Positions 1 to 3,000 of a DNA stretch of 11,399 nucleotides are shown in pieces. Every line of letters starts with the position of its first letter. The first letter of the stretch is position 1. A program made the position numbers. Source of the stretch: Candidatus Micrarchaeota archaeon (GTDB lineage Archaea; Micrarchaeota; Micrarchaeia; Norongarragalinales; SBBD01); the NCBI GenBank assembly GCA_038046605.1, contig JBBSVW010000075.1, forward strand, positions 1-11,399. The letters run 5' to 3'.

Positions 1-3000
1 TCTCGATTTCCCTATCCAAAACCCTTCCTTTCTCAAATTAGCTAATTGTTCCCGTATCCTGGCATAGCGCGGCCCCTTCCTTCCTTGCAACTTTGATGTT
101 TTCCAAAATGATTGCAAGCTGCTCTTTAGCCGTTTCCTTGGTTTCGGATTTCAATGCGAGTTCAATTGCCTTTTCCACATCAAGCGGCAAGCCGGTGACT
201 GCCCTTTTGAGGAGTTCTTCTGTTGCCGTTGCGATTTTTTTTGCATCCATTCAAATCCACTTATTTTTTTGGAACATACCTAATCATCAGCTTGTTTCTC
301 GAATAGGTCCTTATTATTATCCCATCTGAGTGGGTTTGGGGCAAGTAAGTGGCCCCTGGCTTGCGTATTCCTGGAACTGGGACCGTTGAAAGCCTGATGT
401 GGGTGCCTCCAATTTTCTTTGGGAACTTGCCTTTAATTTGTGCCTCCAGGGCATCTAATTTTTTTGGAGTTAGCCCCTCGACCGTGAAAATAGCATGCAT
501 ATTTTCAGTGTTGACAATTTTTTCCCCTGAATAATGCTTTGCATATTCCTTTGTGAGGTGTTTTTCTACCAATTCAACTATTTTATGGAAAGGCATATGC
601 TAGGGGAAGAATTAGCAGAAATAAAAAAGGAGCGCCCTGGGCAGGATTTCCTTGCCTATAATTGGCGGAGCCGCAAAAGGCTTTCTTTGGCGGCGCCATC
701 GCCTTTCTTTCTCGAAAGAAAGGCAAGGCATTCGAACCTGCGACCTGCTGATTAACAGTCAGCCGCTCTAACCGGCTGAGCTACCAGGGCATGAAGGCTC
801 TAGTGTTATTCCAATATACGTTTAAAAATCGTCGCAGATGGCGTTTTTCAAAGGCGAATCAAGCAGAGCACTTGATTAGGGATGCCAGTTTGGAATCACC
901 GACAATCCCTTCGTATTTAGTGTCCTCGATCACAAGCGAAGGTGTGCTTGTAATGTTGTATTTTGTCGTGAGAATGCTTATTAGCCCCATCTCGCCTTTG
1001 TTTGGGAATGCAAAGATGCGCACATTTCCGCATTTATCCCTGAAATTGTCAAGGTATGCTGCCTGCGCATCACACTCGGGGCATGCCCTGCCTTCGGGAT
1101 AGAAATAAAGTATTGGCACAATGTCCTTTTTCCCGCAAAGCGATTCCAGCTGCCTCATGTATAGCCATAGCTCCAGGCTTTGGAGGATGTACTTATCCTT
1201 GGCCTCCTGGAGATTGGATAGGAGATTTGCCTGGGAGTATTGCTCCATCTGGTAAGCAAGGCTATTAGCCCTCTTGATTTGGTCCTTTGTTTGCTGCTCC
1301 AATGCAGGGCAGATGTCGGTTTTTTTTGACCCTTCCAGCTGCGAATAGAGGAGAAGGAGCCTAGCCATCTGGGAATCGCGCTCCATTTGCTCCAATTTCC
1401 CGGCAATTTCGGATTGCCTCCCATCCTCGATGCTTTTAACGGCGAAAAAATTGGCTATGAACACCAAGACTACAATTATCCCCGCCTTGTAAAAAACGCT
1501 CACCATTTTAGCTCACTGCTTGAAACTTCCTTTATGAAGCTTATGAAATAAATAATCGAGAGGAACATAGGATAGACCGTCATAAATAATAGTATGGGGG
1601 GAAGGTCAGAAAGCCCGATCCTTCTTTTGGTTATGCTAAAGCTCGTATAGACCACATAGCCCCATATCAGAAGTGTGGTGATGTAGAATATTGCCGCTGA
1701 TTGGAACCTGAATGCAAACGAGGAGATGATGCCAAATGCAACGGCGGGCGATTCAGGCGCTATTGCAAGCGCAACATAAAATAAACCCGCAAGCAGGGTC
1801 AGGTAAAGCTGCGCAAGCCTTGCGATCACTACGATGGATAGGGCCTGAATCAGGTAGGAAACCGGGAATACGAACCTGCCAAATGTGCCATAAGCCTTGT
1901 TGAACCAAAGTGAGAAGTATTTCTTTCCGTTGTAAATTGCGCCCCTAAACCACCTTATCCGCTGCTTGTAGAGTCTCATTAAAGTCCTTGGGACGCTTGT
2001 GAATGCGCGCGCTTCTGTTGTGGTAATGATCCTGTAGCTGTGTTTTCTGATGTTTAGCGCAATATCCATATCCTCGGTGATGTTGTCCTCGTCAAATCCG
2101 CCCACTTCAAATAGTATTGATTTGCGGTACATTGAAAGGGGGCCAGGAGTGATGAAGATGCTTTCGAGCTTGCCATAGCTTATCTGGGTAAAGCCATGCC
2201 CGACATAGTACTCCACTTCTTGAATGCGCTGCAAAAGGTTCCTTGGCCTGCTGACACTGACAAGCCCAATAACGGATGCGATTTCCTTGCCTGTGAAATG
2301 GCTGGCAAGGTGCGTCAAGGCATCAGGATGCACAAATGTGTCCGAATCTATTGTTGCGATCATTTCGCCCCTTGCCTTGGCAATTCCCAGGTTCAGGGAA
2401 GCTGCTTTTCCGATGTTGCGGCGCGTGCGGATTATCCTTATGCCCCTGAATTTACGCAAGATCTTGTAGCTATCATCGGTGCTCGCATCCTCTATGGCGA
2501 TAATCTCGATTTTTCCGTCGTATTTGAGGGCCTTTATTGCCCTAAGCGATTCCTCAAGCGTTTTTGCGCTGTTGTAAATGGGAACAAGCACAGTAACAAA
2601 TGGCCGTTTGCCCGTCGTTTTTACCTCATGGTCCTCCTTGAATTTGAGTATGTAAACAAGCTCAACGTATAGGAAAAAGAAGTTCACGGATAGGAATATT
2701 GCATAGTAGGGCAAAAGCTCGAAAATGAAATAGAATATCGCGCCAAGCGCGCAAACTGATGCGATTGCCGCAAATAGCGATCCACTGCTGCCTTTCCTGA
2801 ATACCCTCCTGCCGGCGTTCATTTGCATCCCAAGCATCCCCTCGGCAGCTATTTATACTTTTTTGGTTTTAACCCTTTCCTATGAGGCAATATTTGGCGG
2901 TGCAGGTGGGGGTTTGCTCCCTTGCGCTTTTTGGGATGATTTTGTCCCCTACCTTAATGGAATTCCTCTCATCACTAATCCGCCTTCTCACCGAAGGCAA

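Follow-up and report, generated by a model that had tools for sequence, protein, structure and literature searches.

The minus-strand locus at 790..633 is very probably the only tRNA-Asn gene of this Micrarchaeota genome, carrying an archaeal intron of the bulge-helix-bulge (BHB) type in its T-loop, between positions 59 and 60. The same arrangement occurs at 20 of about 38 tRNA loci, and the introns appear to be mosaics of hairpin modules that have been copied between tRNA genes and gained, replaced or lost within the genus. The locus lies in an 11,399-nt stretch of DNA (the window) from a MAG that is a 106-contig draft and 90.7% complete.

Two split tRNA genes in the window

Aragorn reports no tRNA in the window, and RF00005 (Rfam tRNA) scores 41.2 bits on tRNA-Asn(GTT), covering 722-784 only. 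The gene reads as two exons around an insert, and its sequence agrees with the coordinates that the survey's finding had given (633-790, minus strand, insert 647-730). Candidate transcription signals flank it on both sides:

811..830, minus strand: A/T-rich box (TTTTTAAA..TATATT), candidate archaeal TATA/BRE promoter from sequence, 21-40 nt upstream of tRNA-Asn
731..790, minus strand: tRNA-Asn(GTT) 5′ exon from sequence, 60 nt, tRNA positions 1-59, T-loop end TTCGAA
647..730, minus strand: tRNA-Asn intron at T-loop 59/60, 84 nt, module A, starting T-GCCTTGCC and ending GGCAAGG-AAA
633..646, minus strand: tRNA-Asn 3′ exon, comprising T60, the T-stem 3′ strand, the acceptor 3′ strand (646..634) and discriminator G633
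621..630, minus strand: run of six T, candidate terminator from sequence, a few nt past the tRNA-Asn discriminator

The exons pair across the insert at all five T-stem and all seven acceptor positions, and removing 730..647 in silico yields a full tRNA-Asn that aragorn accepts. The 5′ exon has one occurrence in the genome. Across the genus the exon halves co-evolve over the insert: the acceptor pair is T5:A68 in genomes G000 and G006 and C5:G68 in G001-G005, with both sides changing. The region of the A/T-rich box and the six-T run are conserved in the G005 orthologue, and the two are candidates for the promoter and the terminator of tRNA-Asn, respectively. A sigma-70 promoter scan, which is not applicable to an archaeon, found nothing.

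A tRNA-Gln(TTG) gene at 7425..7228 is also split at 59/60:

7367..7425, minus strand: tRNA-Gln(TTG) 5′ exon, ending TTCGAA, from RF00005 and the spliced-tRNA scan
7242..7366, minus strand: tRNA-Gln intron at 59/60, 125 nt, predicted strict hBHBh′ junction, 3′ half formed by module A in reverse orientation
7228..7241, minus strand: tRNA-Gln 3′ exon and discriminator, from the scan and sequence

RF00005 scores 22.7 bits here (7362-7418), the 5′ exon again occurs once in the genome, and aragorn accepts the in-silico spliced form. The central helix pairs at 4 of 4 positions. The minimum-energy fold contains the T-stem, the 4-bp helix, two 3-nt bulges and the closing helix, with a mean pair probability of 0.85; as modelled, the junction is a textbook hBHBh′. 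The tRNA-Asn gene, put forward by the survey's finding as a BHB-bounded example, instead carries a relaxed motif: three of the four central-helix positions pair, one through G-U, and the helix is absent from the minimum-energy fold. In the thermodynamic ensemble this helix has a probability of 0.02, and a 7-bp alternative helix is favoured. Given the three pairs and the competing fold, the tRNA-Asn junction would be a relaxed substrate.

Interrupted tRNA genes across the genome

We scanned the genome for TTCRA, a T-stem of 5/5 pairs, an acceptor of 7/7 pairs and T8, and then ran aragorn on each in-silico spliced form. In the real genome 3345 candidates yielded 22 validated solutions, which fall at 19 loci; the reversed genome, used as a control, yielded 1 from 2317. 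Three loci (C13:12173, C23:42398 and C45:24724) were dropped, as they contain very long aragorn 'introns' in apparently coding DNA and resemble the single false positive of the reversed genome. A targeted scan for TCCGA and TTCAA T-loops added four further loci, bringing the total to 20. Brute-force double deletion followed by aragorn returned 9322 solutions for 5961 candidates and assigned many contradictory anticodons to single loci; we judged it unreliable and left its counts unused.

The observation that tRNA genes are split in the T-loop is confirmed. The insert is recurrent, at 20 of about 38 loci, a denominator that rests partly on hand reading with several anticodons called by eye; this is about half, and not the 'most' that had been claimed. 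Seven loci are uninterrupted, as counted before, and about 31 of the 38 are interrupted. The T-loop introns are 81-248 nt long and have no coding content. No gene was found for several isoacceptors (Asp, His, Tyr and others) in the 90.7% complete genome, where intact copies may be unassembled. Standard tools recover a minority of the loci: run on the whole genome, aragorn reports 8 tRNAs, of which 7 are correct and one is a mis-fold of the Gly-GCC locus, and RF00005 reports 15 above cut-off. The gap in detection described earlier is real, with figures slightly different from the 7 and 16 then given.

If the interrupted loci were dead genes or assembly chimeras, the working tRNAs would lie in unassembled parts of the genome. 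The draft is in 106 contigs and incomplete, and in G001 a contig ends exactly at the Gln T-loop/intron boundary, so repeats do break these assemblies. However, interrupted genes recur in six other species with independent assemblies, their exons and flanks are conserved, their acceptor changes are compensatory and the exon halves retain the T-stem and acceptor pairs in full. This explanation would require about 31 of the 38 loci to be dead, and we regard it as barely credible.

The junctions pair in a BHB register

Summed over the 20 loci, 66 of the 80 central-helix positions are paired, whereas eight shifted registers give 2-42 of 80. Ten loci have all four pairs, seven have three, two have two and one has a single pair. 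The two strands covary: G57 occurs with C(-6) in three loci, A57 with T(-6) in at least five, and loci with C55 have G(-4) in 3 of 3 cases. The BHB layout that had been described for these inserts is borne out by this pairing, and the junction helix, in the right register and covarying, supports the view that they behave as BHB-type introns at 59/60. Loci with TTCA show TGAA at the 3′ junction and not a repeated CAAA, which favours RNA pairing and disfavours a target-site duplication.

In the predicted minimum-energy folds, 10 of 20 loci form at least three central-helix pairs and 9 of 20 form none of the four. Runs of five to seven T occur within 12 of the 20 introns; runs of such length could end archaeal transcription inside the intron. 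An Rfam search of the window and six further loci returned only tRNA plus one chance lncRNA match, and no covariance model assigned these sequences to group I or group II introns or to another curated RNA family.

Splicing enzymes and a model of processing

The endonuclease and ligase genes named in the survey's finding are both present. The C20:292-1455 product (388 aa) matches ARMAN-2 EndA (PDB 4fz2) over residues 14-388 with an E value of 3.5e-126, and PF01974 matches it twice in one frame; judged by this full-length homology to the ARMAN-2 enzyme, it is an endonuclease of the broad-specificity epsilon2 type. RtcB is encoded on C28 (569 bits).

In our model, one precursor would be transcribed from the upstream A/T-rich box to the downstream oligo-T run, and its T-stem would remain paired. 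T-loop nucleotides 54-57 (TTCR) would pair with intron positions -6 to -3 (YGAA or a variant), leaving two 3-nt bulges, one made of nucleotides 58 and 59 with the intron's first base, the other of the intron's final two bases with nucleotide 60. The inner helix would be closed by the intron ends GCCTTGC.. and ..GCAAGGC. Cleavage of both bulges by the three-unit epsilon2-type endonuclease would follow, with RtcB ligating the exons. Among the sequencing runs listed for positions 1-10000 of the window, no RNA run contains the sequence. Transcription through the intron, cleavage and ligation, like the mechanism of copying considered below, are what we infer from sequence.

Introns are copied between tRNA genes and vary within the genus

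The introns are pieced together as mosaics from a small set of hairpin-rich modules, which are common to at least 12 introns; the same modules also form D-loop and 37/38 introns and occur in tRNA trailers. The T-loop introns of tRNA-Asn and tRNA-Val(CAC) (C61) are 89% identical over their full length, with homology that stops at the splice sites and flanking exons that are unrelated.

Presence varies between close relatives. The Asn T-loop intron is found in 5 of 7 congeners, being absent from G002 and G006, and is missing from 10 of 11 Asn genes read in other families. The Val(CAC) intron is present here and absent in all three other congeners read (G002, G004 and G006); for Arg(TCT) it is G002 and G004 that carry an interrupted gene, the one here being intact. 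Pro(GGG) shows four distinct states across the genus, with no intron in G002, reproducing the polymorphism reported before. Intron-less orthologues carry exactly the predicted spliced product, as seen for Asn in G002, G006 and the same 10 of 11 other-family genomes, for Val(CAC) in G002, G004 and G006, for Pro(GGG) in G002, and for Gln in G004, whose T-loop reads TTCGAAT. These comparisons support the conclusion that whole introns have moved as copies from the T-loop of one tRNA gene to that of another, and that they have been gained, replaced and lost between congeneric species. The idea of a spreading intron family is supported on both counts, whole-intron identity between different tRNA genes and gain or loss within the genus.

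Origin of the inserts

Two rounds of BLAST from the 20 T-loop introns identified 94 repeat loci, of which 26 lie in or overlap tRNA loci, 11 are within 250 nt of one and 57 are more than 250 nt from any listed tRNA locus. With modules at those 57 loci, in trailers and in D-loop and 37/38 introns, the repeat family is wider than the T-loop introns. BLAST was used because nhmmer with single modules found only 3-7 copies each and is insensitive for such short elements. A 'coding' flag for repeat loci, defined by 90 stop-free codons, was discarded since it also flagged true introns.

Module B is about 105 nt long and has sharp, constant ends in intergenic copies, tRNA trailers and T-loop introns; no common flank was found for its copies. 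Module A is found in either orientation, with inverted ends, GCCTTGC and GCAAGGC, which are also what the inner BHB helix requires. Its copies read outside tRNA genes (C79:7830-7940 and C93:9312-9432) are both half elements. The GCAAGGC 7-mer has 549 matches genome-wide, mostly in coding DNA, and is uninformative. The 16-mer of module A occurs 9 times here, 8 of them in tRNA genes or directly behind one, and 3-11 times in 6 of 6 congeners, the same counts as in the survey's finding. Its wider distribution comes out differently: outside the family 3 of 30 genomes contain it, where 5 of 30 had been given, and within the family it occurs in three of the four other genera.

MITE, REP and REPIN-type repeats are short, hairpin-rich and non-coding, with many copies in both orientations. 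The inserts resemble them in all of these respects, and perhaps in the inverted ends of module A as well, and might be non-autonomous mobile DNA of this kind that survives in tRNA genes only where the endonuclease can remove its fold, a tolerated transposon and not a tRNA-specific family. The many repeat loci away from tRNA genes, the constant ends of module B in three contexts, the two orientations of module A and the spread of its exact 16-mer across genera and into other families are as expected of such DNA. Unlike these repeats, however, module A hardly occurs outside tRNA genes, with only half elements among the outside copies read, and there is no target-site duplication at the T-loop junctions, where the 3′ junction is instead complementary to TTCR. 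Searches for a tyrosine integrase, a reverse transcriptase and OrfB found none, an absence that is not proof in a genome 90.7% complete, and no matching transposase emerged. A single Y1 transposase, about 1 kb from Ile-GAT, was considered as the mobilising enzyme and set aside: just 2 of 7 congeners have it, and its distribution does not follow that of the 16-mer (it turns up in 5 of 13 genomes that contain the 16-mer and in 9 of 28 that lack it). We consider this origin unlikely; it is compatible with splicing and differs from the preferred reading of the inserts, as BHB-type introns copied between tRNA genes, on origin only.

At five loci the T-arm and acceptor end are complete; modules come next, and behind them the final 14-15 nt of the tRNA are repeated exactly:

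Loci with a duplicated 3′ end: Leu-TAG (C26), Ile-GAT (C9), Pro-CGG (C57), the C68 locus and Val-GAC (C89)

The 14-15-nt repeats at these loci are tRNA 3′ ends and not a fixed target. They could be taken as products of site-specific integration at an attachment site running from the T-loop to the 3′ end, the duplicated 3′ part being lost later to leave an apparent intron as a scar. The Ile-GAT arrangement also occurs in G001, with other inner modules, and is absent in G003, with no downstream match in G006. A related model has been proposed for Caldiarchaeum subterraneum, in which a 1.8-kb recombinase-encoding element disrupts a tRNA gene (PMC3293823); as that source describes it, partial tRNA duplicates lie beside the inserted DNA and introns are gained over a short evolutionary time, much as here. 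The inserts in the present genome, in contrast, are about 80-250 nt long and encode nothing. The duplicated part is also specific to each tRNA, so that one element attachment site cannot serve several tRNA species; no integrase was found, and no degraded version of the gene's own 3′ exon opens any of the few T-loop introns compared by eye. The covariation at the junctions fits selection for RNA pairing. Integration scars are very improbable on this evidence, more so than tolerated mobile DNA.

Under a further reading, which is less likely than not, the T-loop introns would have arisen as copies of a small mobile element that brings the inner helix with it in its own inverted ends, such that insertions at 59/60 would be born spliceable. 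The five loci with duplicated 3′ exons might then be intermediates of insertion or loss.

Comparison with known systems

Part of this picture is already known. ARMAN-2 (Candidatus Micrarchaeum acidiphilum), of the same phylum, has tRNA introns at 59/60 and an epsilon2 endonuclease (structures 4fz2 and 9w2k; PMC3239211), and the enzyme encoded on C20 is its full-length homologue. That account also describes relaxed motifs at 59/60, and introns at 53/54 and 59/60 in tRNA-Pro(GGG), an arrangement shared by congener G004. It puts disrupted tRNA genes at 56%, compared with about 31 of 38 loci here. The introns it describes are short (13 and 25 nt), unlike the 81-248 nt of the T-loop introns here, which are built of modules repeated between genes (PMC3239211). 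A search of the library available to us for long, repeat-built T-loop introns in Micrarchaeota found nothing.

Transposed intron families in Thermoproteales have been read as recent intron transposition (Fujishima et al. 2010, via PMC4090602), and the features concerned, near-identical introns in different tRNAs and a presence that varies between congeners, are both found here (Asn and Val(CAC) for the former). Thermoproteales belong to another phylum and have an endonuclease of the (alpha-beta)2 kind, where this genome has the epsilon2 type. From the Thermoproteales families as presented there, the present case differs in its bias towards 59/60, in modules that also occur outside tRNA genes and in trailers, and in the loci with duplicated 3′ exons (PMC4090602). 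Asgard tRNA genes, according to a recent preprint, are likewise heavily interrupted and missed by standard finders, with repeated gains on terminal branches and inserts at BHB-competent sites (bioRxiv 10.64898/2026.10.13.758758); here, unlike in the Asgard case as reported, copying between tRNA genes is directly visible. Against the epsilon2-cut 59/60 introns described for ARMAN-2 (PMC3239211) and intron transposition in Thermoproteales, what appears unusual is the scale and the clear signs of copying between genes.

Implications

Most tRNA genes in these genomes escape standard finders (for about 38 loci aragorn returns 8 tRNAs, 7 of them correct), and statements on completeness and codon usage for such MAGs are biased as a result. 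The genus also bears on how tRNA introns are gained. The mechanism of archaeal tRNA intron transposition is called unknown in a 2014 review that covers the Thermoproteales families (PMC4090602), and the 2026 Asgard preprint likewise calls the route of arrival open (bioRxiv 10.64898/2026.10.13.758758). Here the introns are long enough to keep recognisable sequence, a recent whole-intron copy links two tRNA genes, seven species hold different states at the same sites, and some loci may be intermediates of gain or loss. If the introns do prove to be copies of a mobile element that arrives already spliceable, this genus would be the first to show the arrival of BHB introns in archaeal tRNA genes.

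Results

The tRNA-Asn gene on this contig is interrupted in its T-loop, between positions 59 and 60, by an 84-nt insert, and a tRNA-Gln(TTG) gene farther along carries an insert at the same position. T-loop inserts of this kind are a real feature of the genome, and the survey's finding had read them properly as introns.

Features of the window, with the evidence for the tRNA parts
790..731, minus strand: tRNA-Asn 5′ part, positions 1–59, anticodon GTT (sequence)
730..647, minus strand: tRNA-Asn insert, 84 nt (sequence)
646..634, minus strand: tRNA-Asn 3′ part, comprising T60, the T-stem 3′ strand and the acceptor 3′ strand (sequence)
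633, minus strand: tRNA-Asn discriminator (sequence)
7425..7228, minus strand: tRNA-Gln(TTG), interrupted at the T-loop site shared with Asn by a 125-nt insert (Rfam match and scan)
1500–2837 and 4396–5685: two glycosyltransferases
5751–6857: class I Trp/Tyr-type tRNA synthetase
7452–8102: SAM methyltransferase
9854–10801: ABC ATPase

The 5′ part of the Asn gene runs from the acceptor strand through the D-arm, anticodon arm and variable region to the 5′ strand of the T-stem and the first T-loop bases, TTCGAA. Aragorn detects no tRNA in the whole window; the Rfam tRNA model covers only the 5′ part of the Asn gene (722–784, 41.2 bits) and matches the Gln gene more weakly (7362–7418, 22.7 bits). 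Each of the two 5′ exons occurs once in the draft genome (1.64 Mb, 106 contigs, 46.8% G+C, rated 90.7% complete). The neighbouring genes (859–6857 and 7452–11397) are unremarkable, with several open reading frames lacking a Pfam match, and the closest homologues of the synthetase, at no more than 80% identity, lie in Micrarchaeota and 'Candidatus Norongarragalinales' metagenome-assembled genomes (MAGs). A vertebrate lncRNA Rfam match at 8731–8839 (21.9 bits; gathering score 70) was taken as chance.

An independent scan of the genome sought T-arms in which TTCRA follows a 5-nt strand pairing 5/5 with a strand 8–320 nt downstream, and further demanded acceptor pairing of 7/7 and T8; after the T-loop insert was deleted in silico, aragorn had to accept the entire product. 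The real genome gave 22 accepted solutions among 3345 candidates, at 19 loci, and the reversed genome gave one among 2317. Three loci (C13:12173, C23:42398 and C45:24724) were removed for very long second 'introns' in seemingly coding DNA, which the single reversed-genome false positive likewise needed. Four further loci came from a targeted scan near other intron-repeat copies (Val-CAC on C61, Val-TAC on C70, Leu-GAG on C62 and Gly-CCC on C90); the T-loop variant TCCGA is present in three. In total, T-loop inserts of 81–248 nt occupy 20 loci, and a further 11 loci, identified by hand reading and with the intron option of aragorn, are interrupted only outside the T-loop (at 37/38 or nearby, or in the D-loop). 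The survey's count of seven uninterrupted genes was reproduced (the eight of aragorn less one mis-fold of the Gly-GCC locus); its statement that most tRNA genes carry T-loop introns is too strong, since these occur in about 20 of 38 loci, with some interruption in about 31 of 38, in a partial census that holds no Asp, His or Tyr and in which several anticodons were read by hand.

For a cut between 59 and 60, the bulge–helix–bulge (BHB) rule predicts that T-loop positions 54–57 pair with intron positions −6 to −3, counted back from the intron 3′ end, that two 3-nt bulges lie beside this central helix, and that the T-stem serves as the outer helix. Across the 20 loci, 66 of 80 positions are paired in the predicted register (4/4 in ten loci, 3/4 in seven, 2/4 in two and 1/4 in one), and only 2–42 of 80 in eight shifted registers. 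The central helix covaries, with G57 opposite C(−6) in three loci, A57 opposite T(−6) in at least five and G57 opposite T(−6) in two, and G(−4) is present in all three loci with C55. The TTCA loci have TGAA and no copy of CAAA, so the 3′ junction is a complement of the T-loop rather than a direct repeat, a pattern that favours selection on RNA pairing over target-site duplication.

The C that replaces the near-universal U at T-loop position 55 (TCCGAT) is found at C61:9002-9241, C70:12125-12366 and C90:2266-2498 of the genome under study (G000) and, among its six congeners (G001–G006), in Lys(TTT) of G003 and Val(CAC) of G002 and G004. Intron-less orthologues confirm C55 as mature sequence, matched in the intron-bearing genes by G at −4.

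Folding of the T-arm together with the insert recovers three or all four central pairs at minimum energy for 10 of 20 loci. The Gln gene folds into a textbook strict motif (hBHBh′) with a mean pair probability of 0.85. The Asn central helix reaches a probability of 0.02, owing to competition from a 7-bp helix formed by the intron ends, and tRNA-Asn is therefore among the weaker motifs. The same intron 3′ tail persists in its G005 orthologue, where it adjoins a closing helix of the full 8 bp; the tail is therefore conserved and not decayed.

Orthologous sites provide the comparative evidence. T-loop introns interrupt Asn genes in G000 (84 nt), G001 (126 nt), G003 (about 108 nt), G004 (about 160 nt) and G005 (161 nt, besides a D-loop intron); the T-loop is intact in G002, which has a 17-nt intron at 37/38, and in G006, which has a D-loop intron. 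The D-loop introns of G005 (L066, C1) and G006 (L073, C14) are related, at about 30 nt, and G000 lacks one, so gain and loss at the two sites of the gene are independent. Elsewhere in the order, the TTCRART loop is intact in 10 of 11 Asn genes read from other families; the Asn gene of G027, from another family, has an unrelated 44-nt intron at 59/60. Gln inserts measure 125 nt in G000, 127 nt in G001 and 173 nt in G005 and are missing in G004; in two other families the gene holds inserts (58 and 107 nt) that are unrelated to these and have CGGA or CGAA at −6 to −3. For Arg(TCT), the G000 gene is unbroken, and the G002 and G004 genes have T-loop interruptions. The polymorphism that the survey described for Pro(GGG) was confirmed (a 59/60 intron of 141 nt in G000 and about 92 nt in G005, no T-loop intron in G002); G003 has an intron at 53/54, and G004 has introns at both 53/54 and 59/60. 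In every intron-less Asn gene the T-arm is exactly the predicted spliced product, as are the TCCGATT or TTCGATT of Val(CAC) in G002, G004 and G006, and this comparison of sequences supports removal of the inserts as introns.

Could these be dead genes or assembly artefacts? The species differ at acceptor pair 5:68 of tRNA-Asn, with T:A in G000 and G006 but C:G throughout G001–G005, a double change across the insert. Interrupted genes recur, with such compensatory changes, in seven independently assembled species, making that explanation very unlikely. One G001 contig does stop exactly where a second Gln 5′ exon copy reaches TTCGAA (L110, G001:C28:5850-5945); assembly thus breaks at intron repeats, and tRNA counts in such MAGs are unreliable as a result.

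By BLAST, the full Asn intron shares 89% identity with the 85-nt T-loop intron of Val(CAC) in the same genome. Similarity runs from the first intron base to T60, and the flanking exons are unrelated. Absence of the Val(CAC) intron from three congeners (G002, G004 and G006) indicates, at the level of sequence, that a complete intron was copied between tRNA genes in the G000 lineage, landing in the second gene at the matching position. Conversion between tRNA genes, reverse splicing or DNA transposition may have been the route.

Most T-loop introns have GCCTTGC within three bases of their start and end in GCAAGGC followed by six or seven bases (central helix and bulge), and BLAST of the introns against the genome reveals a few recurrent modules. 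Module A, in either orientation, consists of the inverted ends, a CTTTCTTT/AAAGAAAG hairpin and a G+C-rich arm, and also occurs in a D-loop intron (C106:10685-10848) and in the 37/38 intron of Thr-GGT on C23. Module B (about 105 nt, constant ends GACACC ... CGCCTCTACCCCCTTAATTT, no Rfam match) lies 2–6 nt past the discriminator of several tRNA genes, in two T-loop introns and in more than 20 other places. Two additional hairpins are designated modules C and D.

Copies of module B
C9:23058-23160
C61:9241-9350
C106:10849-10907
C4:17744-17900
C82:4587-4707
C89:16770-16877, an example of an intergenic copy

Two BLAST rounds yielded 94 repeat loci, 23 within tRNA loci, 3 at their edge, 11 within 250 nt and 57 elsewhere. 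Such dispersed copies would be accounted for if the inserts were purely mobile DNA elements; however, neither a target-site duplication at the junctions nor a matching enzyme was found, and module A is nearly restricted to tRNA genes. An exact 16-mer from module A has nine copies in G000, eight of them inside or directly behind tRNA genes, and 3–11 copies in all six congeners. Beyond the genus it is present in three of four further genera of the family and, outside the family, in 3 of 30 genomes; its reversed form matched nowhere.

Five loci have an unbroken T-arm and acceptor end, then modules, then an exact repeat of the final 14–15 nt of the tRNA.

Loci with a duplicated tRNA 3′ end, all in G000
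C26:10864-11030
C9:22977-23279
C57:9932-10246
C68:5837-6215
C89:36697-37015

This arrangement suggests scars of integration into tRNA genes, but the duplicated part differs by tRNA, each having its own, and no integrase was found in the genome at its estimated completeness. The two 3′ copies of Ile-GAT agree with each other at a species-specific base, in G000 as in G001; G003 has no such tail. Bases ahead of the second copy at the five loci resemble a diverged T-loop. At C9:23280-23330 of Ile-GAT a contiguous 5′ acceptor strand was not found, GGG and CCTG being 8 or 51 nt apart; a further insert may lie in the acceptor stem. The sole Y1 (IS200/IS605-type) transposase gene of G000 (C9:24297-24650, minus strand) lies about 1 kb upstream of this Ile-GAT locus with its duplicated 3′ exon, and its family was found in only 2 of 7 congeners.

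Discussion

The genome encodes candidate splicing enzymes. A single open frame on C20 has two endonuclease catalytic-domain matches, and residues 14–388 of its 388-aa product align to the 395-aa ARMAN-2 epsilon2 endonuclease (PDB 4fz2; E 3.5e-126), which cleaves a relaxed motif at 59/60 in vitro (PMC3239211); RtcB is encoded on C28 (569 bits). For ARMAN-2, PMC3239211 reports position 59/60, relaxed motifs, the epsilon2 enzyme and a large share of disrupted genes, including tRNA-Pro(GGG) with introns at 53/54 and 59/60, and related introns in different tRNA genes are described for Thermoproteales (Fujishima 2010, via review PMC4090602). Set against these accounts as published there, the introns here differ in their length, their construction from dispersed modules, their concentration in the T-loop, their turnover inside one genus and the loci with duplicated 3′ exons. 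The literature searched contains no description of long module-built T-loop introns in Micrarchaeota. These inserts leave the notion of BHB introns unchanged, and they offer an unusually legible case for the question of how BHB introns spread.
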